Shown here: positions 11,888 to 29,359 of the stretch, piece by piece | Layout of the letters: every line of letters begins with the position of its first letter | Position numbering within the stretch: position 1 is the stretch's first letter | NCBI GenBank assembly: GCA_963833095.1 | Contig: CAWHWQ010000005.1 | Span: 256,001-320,000, forward strand | DNA: 64,000 nt | Direction: 5' to 3' | Source: Vulcanimicrobiota bacterium | Lineage (GTDB): Bacteria > Vulcanimicrobiota > Vulcanimicrobiia > Vulcanimicrobiales > Vulcanimicrobiaceae | The notes under the pieces: model-generated | The model's input: the letters and a program-made list of their open reading frames with translations, nothing else | Told to the model about the DNA's origin: nothing | Database searches by the model: none | Made by a program: the position numbers and the translations under genes

Positions 11888-13935
11888 TTACGTGAGATGG
11901 AGCGCCGCAGGATCATGTCGATGAGCTTGATGCCGATGAAGGGCACGATGATGCCGCCGACGCCGTAGATCAGCACGTTCTCCCGCAGGACCGCGTTCGC
12001 GCCGCGCGGCCGGTAGGCGACGCCGCGCAGGGCGAGCGGAATGAGCGCGATGATGATGAGCGCGTTGAAGATGACCGCCGAGAGGATCGCGCTCTGCGGC
12101 GTCGACGAGCCGCATGACGTTCAACGCGTTCATCGCCGGATAGGCGGTCGCGAACATCGCCGGGAGAATGGCGAAGTACTTCGCAACGTCGTTGGCGATC
12201 GAGAACGTCGTCAGCGCGCCGCGGGTCATCAGCAGCTGCTTGCCGATCTCGACGACCTCGATGAGCTTCGTCGGATCGGAATCGAGGTCGACCATGTTGC
12301 CGGCCTCTTTGGCCGCCTGCGTGCCGGAGTTCATCGCGACGCCGACGTCGGCTTGGGCGAGCGCCGGCGCGTCGTTCGTGCCGTCGCCGGTCATCGCGAC
12401 GAGCCGGCCCGAGGCCTGCTCGCGCTTGATGAGCGCCATCTTCGTCTCGGGCGTTGCCTCGGCGAGGAAGTCGTCGACGCCCGACTCGCCCGCGATCGCC
12501 GCCGCGGTCAGCGGATTGTCGCCGGTGATCATCACCGTGCGGATGCCCATCGCGCGCAAGCGGTCGAAGCGCACTTTCATGTTCGGCTTGAGGATGTCTT
12601 TGAGGTAGATGACGCCCAGGATTTGCGCGTTGCGCGCGAGCAGCAGCGGCGTGCCGCCGGCGCGCGCGATCCGTTCGACCTGCTGCGCAAGGCCGTCGAC
12701 AGGCTTGCCGCCTTGCTCGCGTACCCACGCCGGACCGCATCCGGTGCGCCTTTGCGGAATCTTGGCTCCGTCGGCGAGATCGAGCCCGCTCATGCGCGTG
12801 TACGCGCTGAACGGCACGAACGTCGCGCCGGCGGGCTCCGCGTCGTTGATACCGTTGGATTGCGCAAGCGTCACGATCGAGCGGCCCTCGGGCGTCTCGT
12901 CGGGCAGCGAGGGAGATAGGCGACGCTGTACGCGTCAAGCGACGCGACGCCGTCGGCGGCGATGAACTCGCTCGCTTGGCGGTTGCCGAGCGTGATCGTT
13001 CCGGTCTTGTCGAGCAGCAACGTATCGACATCGCCGGCGGCTTCGACCGCGCGGCCGCTCATCGCGAGCACGTTGCGTTGCATCACGCGGTCCATGCCGG
13101 CGATGCCGATCGCCGAGAGCAGTCCGCCGATCGTCGTCGGAATGAGACACACGAGCAGCGCGATCAGGACCGTAACGATGAGGTGTTGGCCCGCGTACAT
13201 GGAAAACGGCGAGAGTGTCGCCACGGCGATCAAGAAGATGATCGTCAAGCCGGCGAGCAGGATCGAGAGCGCGATTTCGTTGGGCGTCTTCTTCCGCGGC
13301 GCGCCCTCGACCAGGCCGATCATGCGATCGAGGAACGATTCGCCCGGGTTCGCCGTGATGCGAATGTCGATTTGATCCGAGAGCACGCGCGTACCGCCGG
13401 TGACCGCGCTGCGGTCGCCGCCGGCCTCGCGAATGACGGGCGCCGACTCGCCGGTGATCGCCGATTCGTCGACCATCGCGGCGCCATGCGACACGTCGCC
13501 GTCGCCCGGGATCAGCTCGCCGGCCGCTACGCGCACCACGTCGCCCTTGCGCAGATTGCTCGACGGGACGCTTTCGACGCCATCGCCGACGACCAGTTTG
13601 GCCAGCGTTTCGGTCCGCGTCTTGCGCAGCGCGTCGGCTTGCGCCTTGCCGCGCCCTTCGGCCACGGCTTCGGCGAAGTTTGCGAAGAGCACCGTGAACC
13701 ACAGCCAGATCGAAATCGCGAAATCGAATCCGGCCGGCCCGTGACTAGCAAGGTCGCGCACGAAGAAGAGCAGGGTGACGAGCGCGCCGACTTCGCAGAC
13801 GAACATGACCGGATTGCGAAACTGCCAGCGCGGATCGAGTTTCGTGAACGAGTCGACCACCGCTCGGCCGAGAATTTCTCCGTCGAACAGGGAGCGTGCT
13901 TTCGGGCGACGCTCGATCCGTCGTTGCGAGATCAT
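11888..13935 (-). CDS. kdpB: K+-transporting P-type ATPase subunit B (frameshifts near 12870-12930 and 12110)
   Basis: [54 protein letters not shown] and [12 protein letters not shown] motifs. Confidence 0.96.
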
Positions 13936-13936
13936 G

Positions 13937-15637
13937 TTAAAACGTTTTTCCTTGCAGATTGAGCAGATGTTCGACGATCGGTCCGAGCGCGTCGGCCGGG
14001 AAAAAGACTAGGGCTCCGACGATAAGGATCGTTCCGATCAGGAGTGCGACGAAGATCGGCGAATAGGTCGTAAACGTGCCTGCGGATTCCGCCACGGCTT
14101 TCTTTCCGGCGAGAATGCCCGCAAGAGCAAGCAGCGGCACAATTTCCGCATAACGCGAAAAGAACATATCGACACCCATCGTGAGGTTGTAGAACAAGTT
14201 GGGCCCGAGCCCGGCAAATGCGCTTCCGTTATTGCCGTTGGCGGACGAGAACGCGTACAGGATCTCGGAGAATCCATGCGGCCCCGCATTGCTCAGGGTC
14301 GCAAGACCAACCGGCGTAATCGCAGCAATAGCGGTCGGCACCAAGACCAGCACCGGTGTCACGATGATGAAGAGGATCGCGAGCTGCACTTCTTTGCGCT
14401 CGATTTTCTTGCCAAGGTATTCCGGCGTGCGGCCAACCATGAGCCCCGCAATAAACACGGTGATCACGACGAAGACCAGCTTGCCGTAGATACCGCTGCC
14501 GACACCGCCGAAGATAATCTCGCCAAGCTGCATGTTTACCATCGGAATGAGGCCACCCAGCGCCGTAAACGAGTCGTGCATGGCGTTGACCGCACCGCAC
14601 GACGTCGCCGTCGTCGACACGGCCCAGAGCGCGGAGGCCACGATGCCGAATCGCACCTCCTTGCCCTCCATGTTTCCGCCGAGCACGCCGAGCTGATGGA
14701 TGAGTGGATTTCCCGCAGCTTCGGCCCAGTAGGCGATCCACACTCCGCCGACCCACATGATCGACATCGCGACGAACAGCGCCCAGCCTTGACGTTGATC
14801 CTTGACCATCCGCCCGAACGTATACGTCAGCGCGGCGGCAATAATGATGAACAGCCACATCTCGAAGAGATCGCTCAACGGCGTGGGGTTCTCGTTCGGC
14901 GAGGACGAGTTCTGACCGACGAAGCCGCCGCCGTTGGTGCCGAGCTCTTTAATCGCTTCTTGCGAAGCCATCGGGCCGCCGGTGATCTGTTGCTTGAAGC
15001 CTTCCAGCGAGACGACGTTCTGGTAGGGGTGGAAATTCTGCGGCACACCGGTGTAGACGAGCACGAGACCCGCAACGATCGAGATCGGCAGGAGCACGTA
15101 GAGACACGCGCGTGTCAGGTCGGCCCAGAAGTTGCCCAGCGTCTTCGCACTCGTCCGCGCAAGTCCGCGAATAAAGGCGATCGCGACTGCGATGCCCAGA
15201 CCTGCGGAAATAAAGTTATGCCACGCAAGACCCATCATCTGTGAAAGGTAGCTCAGCGTGTTTTCGCCCGAATAGAACTGCCAGTTCGTGTTGGTAACGA
15301 AGCTGATCGCCGTATTGAACGCGAGATCGGGCGACATCGGACCGAAGCCTTGCGGATTGAGCGGTAGCCACTGTTGCGTGCGCAGTAAGATGTAAAGGTA
15401 CGCGAACCCGACGAAGGTGAACCCCAGCACCGCAAAGAGGTACGTATACCACGTCATCTCCGCGTTCGGGTCGATCCGGCACAGGCGATAAATCGCGTTC
15501 TCGACCGGGCCGAGGACCGGCGTAAGGAAGGTGCGCTCGCCCGCAAAGACCTTCGCCATGAATGCGCCAAGCGGCTTGACGCAGACGAGGACCAGGACAA
15601 AAAGGACAGCGATTTGCAGCCAACCGATGGCGGTCAT
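13937..15637 (-). CDS. kdpA: K+-transporting ATPase subunit A
   Basis: Intact 566 aa. [43 protein letters not shown] and NNGSAFAG motifs. Confidence 0.98.
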
Positions 15638-15646
15638 GATCTGCTC

Positions 15647-15736
15647 CTAAAACTTCTCTGGGCGAAGCATCGCATACGTGCAGTATACGAGGCCGGCAAG
15701 GGTCAAGATGAGGCCGAGGATATCGTCGAATTGCAT
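15647..15736 (-). CDS. kdpF: KdpF subunit (29 aa)
   Basis: Manual translation MQFDDILGLILTLAGLVYCTYAMLRPEKF, with the YAMLRPEKF KdpF signature, immediately upstream of kdpA. Confidence 0.92.
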   Translation of the reverse strand: MQFDDILGLILTLAGLVYCTYAMLRPEKF

Positions 15737-15740
15737 GATT

Positions 15741-15824
15741 CTATACCTTGTCGCAGCCTATGACGTATCGATCCATCAGTACAAAACACACGATCGACAG
15801 AATAACGATTGCCGCTTCCAACAT
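15741..15824 (-). CDS. 27-aa single-TM micropeptide upstream of kdpF
   Basis: Manual translation MLEAAIVILSIVCFVLMDRYVIGCDKV. Its ATG overlaps the porin stop (TGATG) and its stop lies 4 nt before kdpF. Confidence 0.75.
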   Translation of the reverse strand: MLEAAIVILSIVCFVLMDRYVIGCDKV

Positions 15825-16861
15825 CAGAATTGAACTCCAAGTTCGCCGAGAAACCGCGATTGATTAAACGAGCCGCTCATGAGCGAGTACTCGCCACGCG
15901 CGAAGAACGGTCCGGGGTGATATTCAGGCGTGATCGTCCAGGTCGTCGCGCGGCTTCCCGGCCCGTAGCCGACCAGATCCGCGTTGAGCGAGGTATCCGA
16001 CGCCGCACTGTGGTTGGCAAACGACTCGAAGCGCCCACCGAGTGAATAGACACCGTTAAAGGCGTAGTTGGCGAGCACGACAGCGCCTAGCGCGCTTTCG
16101 CTATTGCTGTACCCGAGCGTAGCTGATGCGGGCGATTGGATGTAGAGCACGTACGGCTCGAGCTGCAGTTTGCCAAACTCTTGCGTGAGCATAAAATCAA
16201 ACTCACGCTTGTTAGCCACAGCGGCGGTCACGTTCGGCGGCGTATTCGCACCCGGAACGATGAACGCGAACGACCAATTCGTATTAGAAGCCGGCGCCCA
16301 TCCGGCCAGACCCTCGACGGCGCGTCCGGTATCGCCAGAGTAATAGCCGTCGTCGTACTCCAGATCGCCCGAGATCTTGCCGTTGGTGTACGCCAAACGC
16401 GCGCCGCGGCTGTAGGTCGGCTCCGCGGCCCACACGAGCCCGCGTTGAATGTTGAAATTCTGGAACGTAAAGCCGTTCTCTTGACCGAGCAGCGTCGCAA
16501 GTTGACCCGCGCTGACCGTCACGTTGCCGTTTGGAACGTACGCGAGATCGTACGCCGGCACATATCCGTAAAGCGATGTGTTCGCGCTTTGCTGCGTCGT
16601 CGGCAGCAGCGTTTGACCGACCACCGGAAACGCATAGGGGCCGACCGTCACGCTGCCTTGCAACAGGCCGGTGTTCTTCGAAAACGTCAAAAGTGCATTA
16701 CTCAAATCGGTCGTACTCTTGAAGTCGCTATAGAGCGAGAAAGCGCCATGAAGTGAATAGAGCGGCGTGGGCGTCGGACGCGCTGTCGGTACTGGACTCG
16801 GGCTGACGCTAGGTGAGGGTGAGGCAGCGACGATCGTTGCCAGAACGAGGGCCTGGAACAT
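15824..16861 (-). CDS. Putative outer-membrane beta-barrel porin (BBP2/OmpL-like) heading the kdp operon
   Basis: Signal peptide, Pro/Ser/Thr linker, amphipathic beta strands and C-terminal ...GELGVQF. Confidence 0.75.
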   Translation of the reverse strand: MFQALVLATIVAASPSPSVSPSPVPTARPTPTPLYSLHGAFSLYSDFKSTTDLSNALLTFSKNTGLLQGSVTVGPYAFPVVGQTLLPTTQQSANTSLYGYVPAYDLAYVPNGNVTVSAGQLATLLGQENGFTFQNFNIQRGLVWAAEPTYSRGARLAYTNGKISGDLEYDDGYYSGDTGRAVEGLAGWAPASNTNWSFAFIVPGANTPPNVTAAVANKREFDFMLTQEFGKLQLEPYVLYIQSPASATLGYSNSESALGAVVLANYAFNGVYSLGGRFESFANHSAASDTSLNADLVGYGPGSRATTWTITPEYHPGPFFARGEYSLMSGSFNQSRFLGELGVQF

Positions 16862-20392: not shown

Positions 20393-21289
20393 TTACGACC
20401 AACCGAGCTTTTCCCTTGCCACGCCTTCAATGAGCGCGGGCGACACCCACGTGATGCCCGGCTCGGCGCGGAACCACGAACGCTGGCGCCGCGCATAGCG
20501 CCGCGTTGCGCGCACAAGCGACGCACGTAGCTCGCTGTGCGTGTTCCATCCACGCAGGAACGCAAGCGCTTGCGGATAGCCGACGGCATTTGCCGCGAGC
20601 GCCGCCACACCGATGCGCTCGGCTTCATCGAGCAGTCCGCCGGCGAGCATCGCGTCCGCGCGGCGCTCGATGCGCTCGTCGATCGTCGCCATTGGCACGT
20701 CGAGTGCAAGCTTGACAAAGGCAATATCGGCTGAGCGCAGCGTTACTCCAGAGGCGGCATCCGGCGCTCTCTCCGGCGCAAGCGCGATCTCGAGCGCGCG
20801 CAGCACGCGATAGCCGTCGTTCGGATCGAGAGCGGCTGCGCGCCGCGGGTCGCGTGTTGCTAGCCACTCCCACAACACCGGCGCGGGGTGCGCGCGCGAC
20901 TCGCGCACGAGCCGCTCACGTAACACGTCGTCCCGTTGCGGCGCAAGCGTTACGTCGCCGGTCAACGCGCGAAGATAGAACCCTGTTCCGCCCACCACGA
21001 TTGCTCGACGCCCGCGTGCGTGGATCGCTTCGATCGCGCGAACCGCATCATGCGCGTACCGCGCAGCCGAATACCGTTCGTGTGGGTCGAGAAACGCAAT
21101 AAGATGATGCGGTGCGGCCTCCAGCTGCGCTGGGGTCGGCGCCGCGGTGCCGATCGGCATACCGCGATAGATCTGTCGCGAATCGGCGCCGACGATCTCC
21201 GCATCGAAGCGCTGCGCAAGATCGATCGCCAGATCGGTCTTTCCCGACGCCGTCGCTCCGGCGAGAACAAGAACGCCGAGCGCACGCAT
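20393..21289 (-). CDS. miaA: tRNA dimethylallyltransferase
   Basis: [30 protein letters not shown] and [12 protein letters not shown] motifs. ATG overlaps the mutL stop. Confidence 0.96.
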
Positions 21290-22980
21290 CAGATCCGTTT
21301 GAACATCTTGGCGATGTCGCTCGAAGCCAGGCGCACCATCGTCGGGCGGCCGTGCGGACAGTGCATCGGATTGGCGCACACGGCGAGCCGTTCGACCAAA
21401 CTCGTCATCTCGTCGAAGTCCAAGCGCTCCCCAGCAACGGTGACCGAGTGGCATGCCAGCGACGCCCAGATCCGCTCGCGCACGCTGCGCTGTTTTGGCT
21501 CCTCCGAAAGGTCGTCGAGAAATCCGGCCAGATCGAAGGCACGCGCCCGGTACCCGGCCGGCGTGGCAGTGATGCGGTACGCGCGCTCGCCGAACGGCTC
21601 GATGTCGAGGCCACCCTCGCGAAGCGGTTCGAGTGTCCTATGAAGCGCGACGCTCTGCTGCGCGTCGAGTTCGACCACGATCGGCACGAGCAGCGGTTCG
21701 CTCGGCGCACGTTCGCGGGCACGCTCGACGATCGATTCGTAGGCGATGCGCTCGTGTGCCGCATGCTGATCGAGCAACAAGAGTCCTTCGCCGTCACTTG
21801 CAAGGATGTACGTGCGATGCACCTGCGCAAGGACACGCATGCGATGGCCGGGGACGTCGCTTGCATCGCCAAGCGGCGCTTCGAAGAGCGCCTGCAGGTG
21901 CGGCAACGAGGTATCGATACCCTGCGGCGCGACCGAGAACGGCGTGGCTCCCGTAGAGTCGGCGAAGCGCGCCGTGGCATGATGATGGAGTGTTGCCGCT
22001 ATCGCGCGGCGCACGGCATCGAAGACCTGCGCGCCGTAACGCAACCGAACGTCACTTTTTGTCGGATGCACGTTCGGATCAACGTGTTCGGGCGGAAGAT
22101 CGAGCATCAGCACGCCATACGGTTGACGGCCGATCATCGCAAACGTCGCGTAGCCCGCGGTCCACGCGCCGGCGAGCAGCGTGCTGCGCAGCAATCGTCC
22201 GTTGACAAAAAGCAACTGCATGCGCCGATCGCCGCGGTCGTTCCCCGGCGCGCTAATGAACCCGCGCAGGCTACCGTCGAGCATGCGCGCCGCTTCCGGC
22301 TCGAGCGGAATCAAACCAGCAGCCGCTTCGCGTCCGAAGACCATGGCCAAACGTTCGCGCGGATCGCCGGTCGCAGGCAGCACCCACACGTCTCGGCCGT
22401 CGTGCCGCAGGGTGAACGTGACGTTTGGATAGGCGAGCGCGAAGGTCGAAAGCCAGCTCGAAATACGGGTAAATTCGGCGCTGGCGCCTTTGAGATATTC
22501 GCGGCGAACCGGGACGTTGGCGAAGAGTTCCGTCACGACGGCTCGCGTGCCCGGCGCTGTCGCAACCGGCTCGACCGGCCCCGCAGCCTCGGCGTGCGCG
22601 ATGATACGCGAGCCGATCTGTTCGCCCGCTGTCCGAGAGTGCAACTCCAGATGCGCGACCGCCGCGATTGACGCGAGACCCTCGCCGCGAAACCCGAGCG
22701 TCGCAACCGATTCGAGATCCTCCGCGCGCGTCAGCTTGCTGGTCGCGTGACGACGCGCGGCGAGTTCAAGGTCGCCGGAGGCAATGCCGTTCCCGTCGTC
22801 GATCACCTCGATACGCTCGGTGCCCCCGCGCTCGAGCACGACGGTCACACGCGACGCGCCGGCGTCGACCGCGTTCTCGACCAACTCTTTGACGATCGAT
22901 TGTGGCCGTTCGATAACCTCGCCGGCCGCAATCTGTCCCACCGTCACGGGATCGAGAAGATGGATCGAGGTCGCGTGCAT
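21289..22980 (-). CDS. mutL: DNA mismatch repair protein MutL
   Basis: QIAAGEVIERP, KELVENAVDAG, TLGFRGEGLASI, DQHAAHERI and CPHGRP motifs. Confidence 0.97.
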   Translation of the reverse strand: MHATSIHLLDPVTVGQIAAGEVIERPQSIVKELVENAVDAGASRVTVVLERGGTERIEVIDDGNGIASGDLELAARRHATSKLTRAEDLESVATLGFRGEGLASIAAVAHLELHSRTAGEQIGSRIIAHAEAAGPVEPVATAPGTRAVVTELFANVPVRREYLKGASAEFTRISSWLSTFALAYPNVTFTLRHDGRDVWVLPATGDPRERLAMVFGREAAAGLIPLEPEAARMLDGSLRGFISAPGNDRGDRRMQLLFVNGRLLRSTLLAGAWTAGYATFAMIGRQPYGVLMLDLPPEHVDPNVHPTKSDVRLRYGAQVFDAVRRAIAATLHHHATARFADSTGATPFSVAPQGIDTSLPHLQALFEAPLGDASDVPGHRMRVLAQVHRTYILASDGEGLLLLDQHAAHERIAYESIVERARERAPSEPLLVPIVVELDAQQSVALHRTLEPLREGGLDIEPFGERAYRITATPAGYRARAFDLAGFLDDLSEEPKQRSVRERIWASLACHSVTVAGERLDFDEMTSLVERLAVCANPMHCPHGRPTMVRLASSDIAKMFKRI

Positions 22981-23022: not shown

Positions 23023-24183
23023 CTAGATCGGCCCGATCGGAAGCGGCAACCAGATCAGCCCATTCCACGTGGGCTTTTGCTGCTGGTTGAACGCTGCTTC
23101 CACGTAGATGAAGACAAAGCGCATGACGTGATAGGACGCGTCGATGTTGCCGATCTGCAGTTGATTACCCATGCCGTCATTAGTGAATTGCTTGCCGATC
23201 GAAAGCATGCCGCGCTGGCCGATGTTATCGTAGATTTCCAACGATGCGCCGTTGCTCGCGGCGGGCGGCGCACCGCTCCCGGGGTTGCCGTCGTAGGCCA
23301 TTTGATACGTCACCAAAACACCGGGGATATAATGGACCGGATCGCGCTCGACGTAAAGCGTGTTGCTGTAGTACTGATCGAAGCCGCCCTCGGCTAATGG
23401 CCAACTCCCACGTGTGCCGACGTACCCGGCTTCGAGCGGTTTTTTCGGATTCGCAAAAGCGACTTGATATTCCAGCGTCTTGTCGGTATCGCCGCTGTAG
23501 TCATTGAAGCCGGAGATATCGGCAGTCGATGTGAGATAGGCAACCTGACCGTAAAACGAGCCGCGGTCGTACACGAACTTCGAACCCCACCGGTTCGCGT
23601 CGAGTTGATAGGCGTGTTCGCCGACCGTCATCTCGGCTGGCGAGTTGATCGTAAGACCAGTCACGTCGAACCACTGGCTGTACTCCGAGGGCCCCGGTGA
23701 CTCGACTTTTCCGACGAAGAGGTGCCCCGAACGGCCGAGCAGATTGTGATATGCAACCCACGCCGTATCGAGCCCACCCGCCTGATTGCCCTCCCAGAGC
23801 CATTGTTGCACGTGGTAGCTCCAATTGGTAACACCCGGACCGATAGTTCCGTCGGCGTGAATGCCGAGATTGCCGCCTTGCCACTGCGCCGCGTTGGGCG
23901 TTTGTTCGGTATACGTCGTCGAATAGTCGACCCACAACGGGTACTCTTTTTTGAGCACGTGCGGATTGAGCGCAGCATAGCCGGTTCGCTGAATATACCG
24001 TCCGTACGCATTGAGCGCGGGTACTTGTGTGTGACAGACGGAACACTGTACGCCATACGCTTGCGCAAAATTTGGCATCGCCTGTGCCTTAGGCGTGAGC
24101 GCAACGAAAAGCACGGCCAGCGCTACGGCGGCTCGGACGACGAATCGCGCAAATCTATCCCGGAAGCGCAACGGCATATACAT
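23023..24183 (-). CDS. Cyc2-like fused monoheme cytochrome c / outer-membrane beta-barrel
   Basis: Signal peptide followed by AMPNFAQAYGVQCSVCHTQVPALNAYGRYIQRTGY and an aromatic-rich amphipathic beta region. GAGGAG RBS spacing favours the ATG at 24177. Confidence 0.75.
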   Translation of the reverse strand: MYMPLRFRDRFARFVVRAAVALAVLFVALTPKAQAMPNFAQAYGVQCSVCHTQVPALNAYGRYIQRTGYAALNPHVLKKEYPLWVDYSTTYTEQTPNAAQWQGGNLGIHADGTIGPGVTNWSYHVQQWLWEGNQAGGLDTAWVAYHNLLGRSGHLFVGKVESPGPSEYSQWFDVTGLTINSPAEMTVGEHAYQLDANRWGSKFVYDRGSFYGQVAYLTSTADISGFNDYSGDTDKTLEYQVAFANPKKPLEAGYVGTRGSWPLAEGGFDQYYSNTLYVERDPVHYIPGVLVTYQMAYDGNPGSGAPPAASNGASLEIYDNIGQRGMLSIGKQFTNDGMGNQLQIGNIDASYHVMRFVFIYVEAAFNQQQKPTWNGLIWLPLPIGPI

Positions 24184-24293
24184 CTCCTCGAACGTCTAGC
24201 GACCTAAAGCAAGCCTACCCGCGGCATCTTCCGCGAAGACGAAGAACTTGTGAACGATTGAAGAATACACTGGTACGAACTGAGGGTCACACG

Positions 24294-25313
24294 TTGAAAA
24301 GCCGCACCACACTGGTCGTACTCGCGGTCGGCATCTTCGCCGGCTTGACGCTCGCCAATTTTGGAACCAATGCCGCGCGAGGGCAAACCGACGGCAAGTC
24401 CGTCTATCTCGCCAAATGCTCCGCGTGCCATCAAGCAAGTGGTCAAGGCCTCGGTCCGTTTCCGCCCTTGGCCGGTAATCCCGACGTTACCAAAGCCGAC
24501 AGTTCCAATATCGTCGCGACCGTTCTGAACGGACGCACGGGACCGATCACGGTCAACGGCAAGCAGTACGGCGGAAATATGCCGGCATGGCGCGGTCAAC
24601 TCTCCAATGCGCAGATTGCTTCCGTGCTCACCTACATTCGCTCCGCGTGGAGCAATAAAGCACCGGCCGTTTCCGAAGATCAAGTCGCCGCTGCGAGCGC
24701 GCCCAAAGCCTTGAGCGGTGCCGCGTTGTTCGCAACGAAATGCGCGACGTGCCATCAAGCCGCGGGTCAAGGAACCGACGCGTTTCCGCCGCTCGCGGGC
24801 AACCCCGTCGTTACCGCCGCCGACCCCAAGCCGATGATCGCCATTATCGTCAACGGCCGTTCGGGACCACTGACCGTCAACGGTAAGACGTTCAACGGAA
24901 AAATGCCGACCTGGAAGGGGCAGCTCACCAACGCCGACATCGCTGCGGTTGCAAGCTTCGTTCGCTCCGCGTGGGGCAACAACGCTTCGCCCGTGACCGA
25001 GCAAGAAGTCGCCACCGCGGGTGCGCCCGTTTCGCAGGAAGTCGGAGCGTCGGTTTATGCAACGCACTGTGCAACCTGCCATGATGCTAGCGGCAAAGGC
25101 GGCGCGGGCCCCGCGCTCGCAGGTGACACGTTCGTTACCGCATCCGACCCAGCCGTGCTGATCAAGACGATCGAACAAGGACGCAACCTCATGCCATCGT
25201 GGCGAGGCCAGCTCTCCGCAAGCGATATCGCGGCGGTCGCAACGTACATTCGATCGGCGTGGGGTAACAAAGCGAGTCCGGTAACACCGGATGACGTAAC
25301 CGCAATCAAGTAG
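24294..25313 (+). CDS. Periplasmic tri-heme cytochrome c (three tandem class I domains)
   Basis: Signal peptide; CSACH, CATCH and CATCH, each followed by MP[A/T/S]W and YIRSAW/FVRSAW repeats. TTG start at 24294 (ORF open from 24258). Confidence 0.92.
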   Translation: MKSRTTLVVLAVGIFAGLTLANFGTNAARGQTDGKSVYLAKCSACHQASGQGLGPFPPLAGNPDVTKADSSNIVATVLNGRTGPITVNGKQYGGNMPAWRGQLSNAQIASVLTYIRSAWSNKAPAVSEDQVAAASAPKALSGAALFATKCATCHQAAGQGTDAFPPLAGNPVVTAADPKPMIAIIVNGRSGPLTVNGKTFNGKMPTWKGQLTNADIAAVASFVRSAWGNNASPVTEQEVATAGAPVSQEVGASVYATHCATCHDASGKGGAGPALAGDTFVTASDPAVLIKTIEQGRNLMPSWRGQLSASDIAAVATYIRSAWGNKASPVTPDDVTAIK

Positions 25314-25413: not shown

Positions 25414-27923
25414 TTATTCAAGGTTCAGGAAGGACAATTGCTCTTCTGCCTCGCCGGCGCGGGACAGTCGGCGCCGTAGCGGGGCGGTTTGTTCGACGTC
25501 GGGTTGGCCGGAGAGGGCATCCGCGATTTCCTGGGCCCGCTCGACGACTGCCGGCGGCAATCCGGCCATGCGCGCAACCTCGATACCGAAGGAACGCGAG
25601 GAGCTCCCCGGCTGAACGCGATGCGAGAAGACCGGGGCCCCGTCGCGCGCGGTGTTCTCGACCGCGGTAATATGGTAGTTGGCGACCAGCGGCCAGTGGT
25701 CGGCCAGCGCGCACAACTCGTGGAAGTGCGTGGCGAAGAGCGCCATCGGCGCTTGCGCGTCGAGCCCGAGCAAGATACTCGCAGATCGCCTGCGCGATCG
25801 CGAGGCCGTCGATCGTGCCGGTGCCGCGGCCGACCTCATCGATGAGCAGCAGCGAGCGGCGCGTGCTGCGGCGCAAGATGTTCGCCGCTTCGGCCATCTC
25901 CATATAGAAGGTCGATTGTCCCGAAGCCAGATCGTCGCCGGCGCCGATGCGCGTGAAGATGCGGTCGACGATGCCGAGCGCGCATCGCTTTTGCCGGGAC
26001 GTAACGAACCGATCTGCGCCATGATCGTCAGCAGGCCGGCCTGCCGCAGATACGTCGACTTGCCGCCCATGTTCGGGCCGGTCAGTAGAGATGAAGCGGT
26101 GGGTCGCCGGCTCGCAGACGCAAATCGTTGGGAACGAAGTGCGCATGCAGCAGCGCCTCCATGACCGGATGGCGGCCGTCTTCGATCGCGATGGTGCTTT
26201 CGTCGACGAACTGCGGGCGCACGTACCCGCGCTCGGCGGCGCATTGCGCGAGCGCGCCAAAGACATCGAGCTGGGCCACCGCGTCGGCGGCAGCGAGCAA
26301 ATCGTCAGCGCTGGCCGCGACGCGCTCGAGCAGCTCGGCGTAGAGTCGCTCTTCCAGTCGCTGTTGGCGCGACTGCGCGGTCGAGATCGCGGGTTCGAGT
26401 TCTTTGAGCTCCGGCGTGACGTAGCGTTCGCCGTTCGTCAGCGTCTGCTTGCGCACGTAGTCGGCGGGCACGTTAGCGGCCTGCGCTTTGCTGATCTCGA
26501 TCGCGTAGCCGAACGCGCTAGCGTACTTGATCTTGCAGGGACTTGATGCCGGTGCGCTCCCGCTCGCGCTCCTCGAGCTGCCGAGAGGCTCGAGCGCGCG
26601 TCGGTGCGCAAGCGCGACGCATTCGCGCAAGTTCGGCACGGCTTCGGGCCGAATGACGCCGCCGTCGGCGAGCTGCGCCGGCGGTTCGTCGACCAGCGTT
26701 CGCTGCGAGATCGTCATGCAGGTCGCGCAGAAGTCGCCGAGCGTTCGCGACGATCGCGGCGAGCGCCGGGGGCGCGACTTGCGCGCAGGGGACGCAGCAC
26801 GTCGAGCGTGCGCCGCAGCGACGCGAGATCGCGCGGCAGACGCGCGCCGGAAGCGCACCTTCTGTGCGATGCGTTCCAAATCGAAGCATCCGGCGAGCAA
26901 CTCGCGGATCGCTTCGCGACGCGCGTGCTCGTCGAGTAACGCTGCACCGCATCCTGTCGTCCGACGATCGTCGTCGCGATCGACCAGCGGTGCTGAGGAT
27001 CCAGCGCGCCGAGCATCCGCGAGCCCATCGACGTCGCGCAGCGGTCGAGCGTCGCGAGCAGCGTCGCGCGCGGATTCTGGCCTTGTGCCCTGGTCAGTTC
27101 GAGATGCTTGCGCGTCGCGGGATCGAGCGCCAGGAAGTTGCGATGACGATAAAACTGCGGCACCGCGCGCAGGCTCTCACCGTTACCGGCGATCGCCGTA
27201 CGCTTGACGAATCCGCCGAGCGCGTCGAGCGCGCGATGCATCGCCAGCGATTCGTCCGAGTGAGAAGCCGTCGACGACAATGCCGCTCGCGTGCATCCAC
27301 CAGGCCGAGCGGCGGCGCGGCAATGCGCGCGCCACTCGCTTCGAGCGCGCCGCGACATCGCGCGCGCACGCCCGCCGGCACGTCGGCGACGATCTCCGCC
27401 GGGCCGACGCGCGCGAGTTCGGCTAGCACTTCGTCGTACGCGTCCTCGGCCCGACATCGCGGTCGCGGCGCCGTGCCCGGTCGAAACGTCGGCGTAGGCC
27501 AAGGCGAACGCGTCATCGACCGCCGCGACGGCCGCCAGGTAGTTGTGTGCTTTGCCGTCGAGCAACTGCTCTTCGATCAAGCGTGCCGGGCGTGACGATG
27601 CGCACGACGTCGCGCCGCACCAACTTGTTCGGCATCGGGGCTTCGAGCTGTTCGGCGAGCGCGACGATAAAGCGCTGCGCGACGAGCTTGTGCAGGTAGC
27701 CCGCGAGCGCGTGATGCGGCACGCCGGCCATCGCGACGCGCTGGCCGCCGCCGGCTCCTTGCTGGTCAGCGCGATCTGCAGCGCCCGCGCGATCGTCTTC
27801 GGCGTCGTCGCCGTACGCTTCGTAAAAATCGCCGACGCGCGAGAGCAGGATCGCCTCGGGATGCTTAGTTTTCATCCCGAAGTACTGCTCGAGCATCGGC
27901 GAGTACTTGATTGTGTCGGTCAT
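25414..27923 (-). CDS. mutS: DNA mismatch repair protein MutS (many frameshifts)
   Basis: [73 protein letters not shown] and FATHFHEL motifs. Confidence 0.95.
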
Positions 27924-29359
27924 GCCAGGCGCGCTAGCCCGCTGACGAGATCGATCACCGGCGCGGCGACGGCCGTGCCCACATCGTCGAAACGCGCGGC
28001 GCGGCGCGACGATCGTGCCGGTGCAGCCCCACACGTGCGCGCGTCTCGATCGCGATATCGAGCCACGGCTCGCGCGCGTAGAGCGTCTCGTCGTAATCCG
28101 GCGGCATAGGGGCGATCACGGTCACGTTGTCGAGCGTTTTGGCGGCGAGTTTCGCGGGATCTTTTTTCGAGGGACCTTGGATCAGCGCGCGGACGCGTCG
28201 TGCCGATCTTGCGATCGTGATACGCGCGCGTCGCCGCATTCTGCGCGTCGAGCAACCGTGCGAAGCGCGCGCGCGGACACCTCGCCTGGCACTTGCTCCC
28301 AGTGCGCGGCCGGCGTGCCGCGCCGGATGGAATAGATGAACGTGAACGCATTGGCAAACACCTCGTTGGTAACGCAACTCGAGCGTTGCCTCGAAATCGG
28401 CGTCGGTCTCGCCCGGGAACCCGACGATGATATCGGTCGTGATCGCCCAGTCCGGAAGATAGCGCCGAAACAGTGCGAGCCTTTCTTCGAACTGCGCGCG
28501 GCGTGTACTTGCGGTTCATCCGGCGCAGCATCGCGTCGCTGCCCGATTGCAGCGGCAGATGCACGCGCGGATTGAGCTGCGGCACGTGGCGCCAGATCCG
28601 CGATGATCTTTTCGGTAAAATCCTTGGGATGCGGCGAGATGAACGTCAGGCGCTCGAGCCCCGGAATGCGGCGACCGGCTTGCAGAGATCGCCGAAATCG
28701 GCGCCGGTCGCGGGATCGCTCCAGGCGTTGACGGTCTGCCCGACCAGCATGACCTCGCGCGCGCCGCTCGCGATGTGTGTCGCGCACTTCGGCGACGATC
28801 TCGCGCATCGGGCGGTGATCGAAGCGGCCGCGCACGTGCGGCACGATGCAGAACGTGCAGTAGTACGAACAGCCGCGCTGCACGGTGACGAACGCGCGCA
28901 GATGCGAGAACGCGTCGACGACGCGCGTCGGCCGTGCCGCCGATGGCCCGAAACGACGCTTCAGCGCTTCGCATCGTCTTGTTCCGGCGCATCGGCGAAG
29001 TCCGGCTGCCACGCTGCGAGCTGATCGCCGAGCTGCACCAGTTCTTTGCGTGCCGAAGACCGCGTCGACGTGTGGCGCAAGCTTCTGCATGCGATCGCGA
29101 TCTTGTTCGGCCAGGCAGCCCATCACGACCAGGCGCACCGCGGATCGCGCGTCTTTGAGCACCTTGAAGTGCTCCATCCGCCCGTAGGCGCGCCGCTCGG
29201 CGTTGTCGCGCACGGTGCACGTGTTGAGCACGAGCACGTTGGCGTCTTCCGGCCTTGGTCGCGATCTCATAGCCGGCCGAGTTGCGCGCGGTCGGCGATG
29301 TACTGCGAGTCGGCCTCATTCATCTGACAGCCGAACGTTTCGATGTAGATCCTCGCCAT
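27920..29359 (-). CDS. miaB: tRNA methylthiotransferase MiaB (frameshifted)
   Basis: [42 protein letters not shown] and HLPLQSGSD motifs. Confidence 0.94.

Follow-up and report, generated by a model that had tools for sequence, protein, structure and literature searches.

The closest described fused cytochrome-porins are the Cyc2 proteins, which include Cyc2 of At. ferrooxidans, Cyc2PV-1 of M. ferrooxydans, Cyc2TAG1_1 of Ghiorsea and Cyt572 of Leptospirillum, and which fall into three clusters (PMC7029218, partial text). The motif AXPXFAR[Q/K][T/Y] upstream of CxxCH has been called unique to Cyc2 and was used as the filter for the reference tree; the same study states that distant Cyc2 homologues need verification and asks what role homologues play beyond the known iron oxidisers (PMC8406198). 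Since the potentials of characterised Cyc2 proteins span -130 to +560 mV (PMC13692758, partial text), homology does not fix the direction in which electrons move. In Acidithiobacillus, cyc2 heads the rus operon, cyc2-cyc1-cup-coxBACD-rus (PMC10654088, partial text). In the c552-ba3 branch known from Thermus thermophilus, cytochrome c552 donates electrons to the CuA of ba3 oxidase (PMC3141039, partial text). Eremiobacterota Cyc2-like genes were reported from mine drainage (PMC8357290, partial text) and tailings (PMC13594681, partial text), and these may represent the clade described here or another.

The cytochrome-porin and its tri-haem neighbour

In the window, the whole 64,000-nucleotide stretch of DNA analysed here, a reverse-strand ORF of 386 aa (23023..24183) encodes a Cyc2-like fused monohaem cytochrome-porin, in which a hydrophobic leader ending in AQA precedes a haem segment and an aromatic-rich beta region of ~300 residues. 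An earlier note on this DNA had given the limits of this ORF and the place of its neighbour, the exact haem segment and the beta-rich remainder, and all of these are borne out. A GAGGAG at 24189-24184, 6 nt before the second ATG (24177), favours that codon as the likelier start, giving 384 aa. The signal peptide (24079..24183, reverse strand) was recognised by inspection, by a model helix at residues 10-28 and by the conserved AxA site (A33 and A35, 86 and 83%), with predicted cleavage after AQA, after which the mature N-terminus would be Met36. A Met at this position is invariant among the homologues and is a candidate sixth haem ligand. The haem c mini-domain M36-Y69 (23977..24078, reverse strand), which is of low confidence in the structure model, holds MPxFAQAY, the only CxxCH of the protein (C47/C50/H51, at 24045-24031), PxL and GR. 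We found 495 homologues at E<=1e-3, with the Cys, the His and Pro-x-Leu (P55, L57) invariant in 68/68 of those aligned, so the haem motif is not a product of chance. The structure prediction proposed in the earlier note yielded a predicted 16-strand beta-barrel over residues 83-382 (23038..23937, reverse strand), modelled as an OprP-like channel fold, the template class of Cyc2. Four non-haem histidines of the barrel (His109, His124, His154 and His190) are invariant and many acids are conserved. The protein would presumably be loaded with haem and reside in the outer membrane.

With Cyc2 the porin shares the signal peptide, a single CxxCH near the N-terminus with PXL four residues after it, AxPxFA before it at equal spacing, a length above the threshold of at least 365 residues, the modelled 16-strand OprO/OprP-like barrel and full-length profile homology to canonical-motif proteins. 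It differs in reading AMPxFAQAY (AMPNFAQAY in the window) where Cyc2 has AxPxFAR[Q/K][T/Y]: among the 118 homologues with a scorable motif none has the published form, while FAQAY occurs in 107, with the spacing and A, P, F, A and Y retained. Unlike Cyc2, the clade also has the invariant Met at the mature N-terminus, ends in W-x-P-x-P rather than in a terminal aromatic, and occurs in hosts that mostly lack RuBisCO. It forms a separate long-branch clade (74 rows, SH-aLRT 100) in a quick tree in which long branches were flagged and the outgroup consisted of canonical-motif proteins only, without any named Cyc2. Pfam and NCBIfam contained no model matching the porin. The Cyc2 pattern that had been recognised is upheld as full-length homology to canonical-motif proteins, but the published diagnostic motif is absent.

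Two further, distant monohaem cytochrome-porin genes are present in the same genome. One (G000:C2:275749-276870; L002, L092) shares its run with two cupredoxin genes, one of them type-1, an SCO-like gene and a response regulator/kinase pair, and may be copper-related; the other (G000:C6:12781-13839; L003) has a YceI-like gene after it. Loci L058, L060, L068 and L072 have either two copies of the porin or two to three genes for CuA carriers.

On the forward strand, a secreted tri-haem cytochrome c is encoded at 24294..25313, in an ORF readable from 24258. GAGGG at 24282-24286 favours TTG 24294 as the likelier start, and the resulting 110 bp gap to the porin fits the ~110 bp given previously. 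The three CxxCH motifs (24417, 24741 and 25068) are followed by MPxW after 54, 54 and 41 residues, as the repeats had been described, and all three haem motifs, with their Met ligands, are invariant in 24/24 tri-haem proteins, in line with the proposed His/Met coordination. PF13442/PF00034 match in three stretches with the features of class I His/Met cytochromes c, and the profile matches Thermus c552 at E 2e-17, the c domain of a fused NirK scoring slightly better. We assign the protein, by its sequence, as three class I c552-like His/Met domains. A porin with a periplasmic multihaem cytochrome, sometimes joined by a HiPIP, is also found in MtoAB/PioABC; those systems, however, have a 26-strand barrel around a decahaem protein, whereas the porin here has 16 predicted strands and its own haem, and the tri-haem protein would remain periplasmic. 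Identity with MtoAB/PioAB was ruled out, as the locus has neither the 26-strand barrel nor the separate decahaem cytochrome.

The pair is placed between mutS (25414..28034, reverse strand, upstream, in several frames) and mutL (21289..22980, reverse strand, downstream), both of them context outside the module, and its G+C is 0.575 and 0.611 vs 0.68 and 0.654 for mutS and mutL. At the same site, relatives carry either the tri-haem gene (L004, L005, L008, L009, L012), with an additional HiPIP in L004 and L012, or a CuA gene (L007, L010, L013, L029), or neither (L011). L005 appears mosaic: its barrel is 82-100% like that of the window per block and its tri-haem protein 95-96% like that of another genus, so that at L005:4290-7016 the carrier cassette and the 5' end of the porin seem to stem from one genus, the barrel and the mutL surroundings from another, possibly through misassembly. 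An 820-aa secreted protein with no Pfam match lies between mutS and the module at L008:2232-4730, L009 and L010. The mutS and miaB genes of the window (25414-29270) are broken across several frames and are whole in relatives, so assembly indels are likely. Elsewhere in the window (12871-16861), a gene for a putative outer-membrane protein of 345 aa precedes kdpA/kdpB-like genes, all of them recognised from sequence.

The host genome is 81% complete, with many frameshifts. Searches of it found lpxC but not BamA, CcsA, ResB, CcmE or RuBisCO; among relatives, 25/25 have BamA and 40/40 a CcsA-type gene, the latter tally including the unpublished genome G117. A cultured member of the lineage possesses an outer membrane (PMC9758169, partial text). 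The genome also contains two tandem HiPIP-like genes adjoining a regulator/kinase pair (G000:C5:166842-167316) and a frameshifted run named by sequence recognition as Actinobacterial-style dihaem QcrC, CtaG, QcrB, Rieske and aa3 (G000:C5:47693-54600; L090).

Distribution, carriers and the ba3 oxidase

We sampled 200 evenly chosen genomes of the phylum plus the host genome. Porin matches at E<=1e-5 were obtained in 139/142 other class genomes, a tally that includes G117, and weakly in 4/58 outside the class. At the orthologue cut-off of E<=1e-66, set at a clear gap in the scores, the porin is present in 95/142 class genomes (host genome included; counts out of 95, 47 and 142 at this cut-off leave G117 out). 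The named homologues belong to Eremiobacterota/Vulcanimicrobiota, the closest (90%) being labelled Ca. Aquilonibacter, and the hosts are mostly non-autotrophic, which agrees with the non-proteobacterial heterotroph that had been suspected. By hand count, RuBisCO shows no association with the porin (11/95 porin genomes vs 8/47 other class genomes).

The tri-haem gene (E<=1e-60) was found in 49/201 genomes, and the porin in every one of these 49. A survey of gene linkage had been advised in the earlier note: tri-haem and porin lie within 1.5 kb in 43/49 genomes, and of 44 linked tri-haem genes 34 are divergent as in the window, 9 downstream and 1 upstream. The idea of a fixed two-gene module, in contrast, does not hold, since several carriers, the tri-haem protein among them, can take each other's place and the porin is more often partnered by a CuA protein. 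This secreted cupredoxin of 115-130 aa, with a full CuA ligand set, is encoded within 2 kb of the porin in 68/95 genomes, usually immediately upstream and co-directional. Both carriers are near the porin in 24/95 genomes, and at least one in 87/95. All six ligand positions of the CuA pattern (His ... Cys-x3-Cys-x3-His-x2-Met) are present in the carriers examined, PF13473 (cupredoxin) matches, and Thermus CuA matches at E 2e-5; the protein is thus a predicted CuA-motif domain on a cupredoxin fold. Carriers can also be fused to the porin: among 22 homologues scanned, picked for length or distance, cytochrome c domains stand at the C-terminus of 8, and 1 has a CuA domain.

The linkage to an oxidase, like the regulatory box described below, goes beyond the earlier note. 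Subunit I of this enzyme matches that of Thermus at E 2e-119 and retains the helix-VI cross-link tyrosine, and the operon includes a CuA subunit II and a IIa-like peptide, which identifies it, at the level of sequence, as a B-family (ba3) oxygen reductase, a high-affinity oxidase. It is present in 67/95 porin genomes vs 10/47 others, an enrichment that is overstated because kin are not independent. In 27/67 genomes it lies within 5 kb of the porin, and in family f3 within 1.2 kb in 10/11; in the host genome the distance is 144 kb. No ba3 match was found in 28/95 porin genomes, among them many of the 49 tri-haem genomes, and 10 genomes have ba3 and no porin.

The assemblage resembles the c552-ba3 branch of Thermus thermophilus in ba3 subunits I and II, the IIa-like peptide and c552-like donor domains, and differs in its donor, which is either a free CuA protein or a protein of three domains and whose gene adjoins that of an outer-membrane cytochrome. 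The rus operon likewise brings a monohaem porin of the outer membrane, haem and copper carriers of the periplasm and a haem-copper oxidase together in one neighbourhood. There, however, the oxidase is aa3 and the carriers are rusticyanin/Cup and a dihaem c4, whereas here we find a B-family ba3, a binuclear CuA-motif carrier and a tri-haem c552-like protein, with swappable parts and a box in common with fermentation and stress genes.

A direct-repeat box upstream of the porin

Between the divergent genes lies a direct-repeat box of 11-bp period (24235..24267, reverse strand; TTC at 24265, 24254 and 24243). TTC-N8-TTC was found upstream of the porin operon in 59/74 scorable regions, compared with a mean of 5.3 and a maximum of 11 in shuffled regions (200 shuffles) and with 13/435 control regions of the host genome. 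Using a matrix trained on 64 loci, from which the locus of the window and its mutS-mutL relatives were excluded, we found the phosphoketolase promoter to score highest in the genome and the window site second. We take 11-bp direct repeats to mark OmpR/PhoB-type sites, and the box is likely such an operator. Its position suggests that the tri-haem gene is co-regulated with the porin; on that gene's own strand the box was found in 1/25 cases only.

The neighbourhood was surveyed at 76 non-duplicate loci (22 homologue loci plus 60 hand-picked top matches, minus 6 duplicates). Recurring neighbours are an unknown 140-aa family (24), ba3 (20), a sensorless histidine kinase (20), response regulators (18), USP (17) and a PNPOx-like gene (7). 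Box scores of at least 12 precede 11/20 of the 140-aa genes, 3/4 of the PNPOx-like genes, 5/13 of the USP genes and 10/256 others. The box precedes 5-6/17 ba3 operons, and is absent directly upstream of that of the host genome (score -0.7).

The top-scoring copy lies in an island of the host genome (G000:C5:120500-137200; L091) that contains phosphoketolase (xfp), ALDH, two ADH genes, Nramp, an OmpR-type regulator, the ba3 operon, USP and three copies of the 140-aa family gene. Such gene sets are presumably low-oxygen regulons. Members of this 140-160 aa family (L021:7157-7573 and 23 other loci) have no Pfam match, a weak SRPBCC/CoxG likeness in ESM Atlas and usually a box ahead. The ~240-aa histidine kinase (L078:4222-4935 and 19 other loci) has no sensor or membrane domain and is coupled to an OmpR-type regulator, often near ba3.

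Direction of electron transfer and its meaning for the class

We lean, by a little, towards electrons entering the cell. A dissolved reduced donor outside the cell would enter the porin pore and reduce the porin haem, which would hand electrons directly to the tri-haem or CuA carrier and through it to the ba3-type oxidase and O2; the wire would be switched on at low oxygen. As RuBisCO is absent from most hosts, the energy gained would supplement a heterotroph rather than sustain lithoautotrophy. If electrons do enter, Fe(II) is the most likely donor; over all readings together, that Fe(II) is the donor is possible, although we would sooner expect otherwise. Several observations weaken this account: the diagnostic Cyc2 motif is absent, the hosts are mostly ordinary soil heterotrophs with no RuBisCO link, and BamA, CcsA, ResB and CcmE were not found in the incomplete host genome. 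The ba3 step in particular is weakened by the genomes that have porin or ba3 without the other, by the small share of ba3 operons with a box and by the distant ba3 of the host, which has no box directly upstream. CuA and c552 potentials lie at about +0.2 to +0.25 V, which is low for the oxidation of free Fe(II) at pH 4-5, so organically bound Fe(II) may be the required donor.

Co-regulation with fermentation genes suits electron export equally. Respiratory electrons would then leave the bcc complex at low oxygen, reach the haem of the porin by way of the carriers and end on soluble Fe(III) or humic quinones, with ba3 and the porin as alternative, co-induced sinks. Thermodynamics at soil pH permit such export, the box also heads phosphoketolase and other fermentation and stress genes, and the hosts are mostly heterotrophs. 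Moreover, a reverse route that reduces Fe(III) through Cyc2 and rusticyanin has been suggested for At. ferrooxidans, and micro-aerobic Fe(III) reduction is reported for acidophilic heterotrophs (PMC8790237, partial text). We nevertheless consider export unlikely, though a serious contender: no quinol dehydrogenase or bc gene recurs by the porin at the 76 loci, the oxidase is the porin's tightest link, the characterised Cyc2 proteins in the papers cited are all Fe(II) oxidases, and only dissolved substrates suit a haem that is single and buried.

A role in metal acquisition, in which the haem-plugged pore alters the redox state of entering copper or iron for the CuA/CuB sites of ba3 and for haem assembly, with the CuA-motif protein carrying or storing copper, seems improbable. 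It would account for the invariant histidines and conserved acids of the barrel, the tight coupling to a copper protein, the Nramp-family gene in the ba3/phosphoketolase island and the paralogue beside a type-1 cupredoxin and an SCO-like gene. However, the copper protein can be replaced by a tri-haem c, a mono-haem c, a HiPIP or a fused haem domain, whose common trait is electron transfer and not copper handling, and neither an FTR1/EfeU-type permease nor a TonB gene is among the recurring neighbours at the 76 loci. We would be more surprised still by a porin whose haem gates solutes or reports redox state, with carriers that serve only between bcc and ba3 and an adjacency due to a common regulator. 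Carrier-porin fusions in several lineages, the constant presence of the porin in tri-haem genomes, many without ba3, and the carrier that stays beside the porin when the pair leaves the island, as in the window, all speak against it, even if the OprP-like channel fold is suggestive and the common box and island structure could explain the clustering.

Regardless of direction, the clade offers a defined system for testing, made up of a single porin with its native carriers, a likely oxidase and a predicted operator. In the literature searched, which included few subscription journals, neither a class-wide clade nor a free CuA carrier was described, nor were the ba3 link and the box. The class is common in acid soils, peat and mine waste, and the porin occurs in most of its sampled genomes. 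If electrons flow inward, Fe(II) oxidation as an energy supplement would be far commoner in soils than marker surveys imply, because members of the clade do not pass the motif filter that has been published; if outward, the module would offer acid-soil heterotrophs a candidate route for Fe(III) reduction. A wider reading is rather doubtful when its parts and consequences are taken jointly: in it, most members of this globally abundant class of acid-soil heterotrophs would operate a regulated, modular electron wire in the outer membrane within a low-oxygen regulon. The wire would consist of a Cyc2 relative that breaks the motif and has Met as an N-terminal haem ligand, of either a CuA shuttle standing free or a swappable tri-haem protein, and of ba3. 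If true, the class would drive much of the redox cycling of soil iron (or humics) without having been recognised for it, and the soluble single-domain CuA carrier would have its first natural role.
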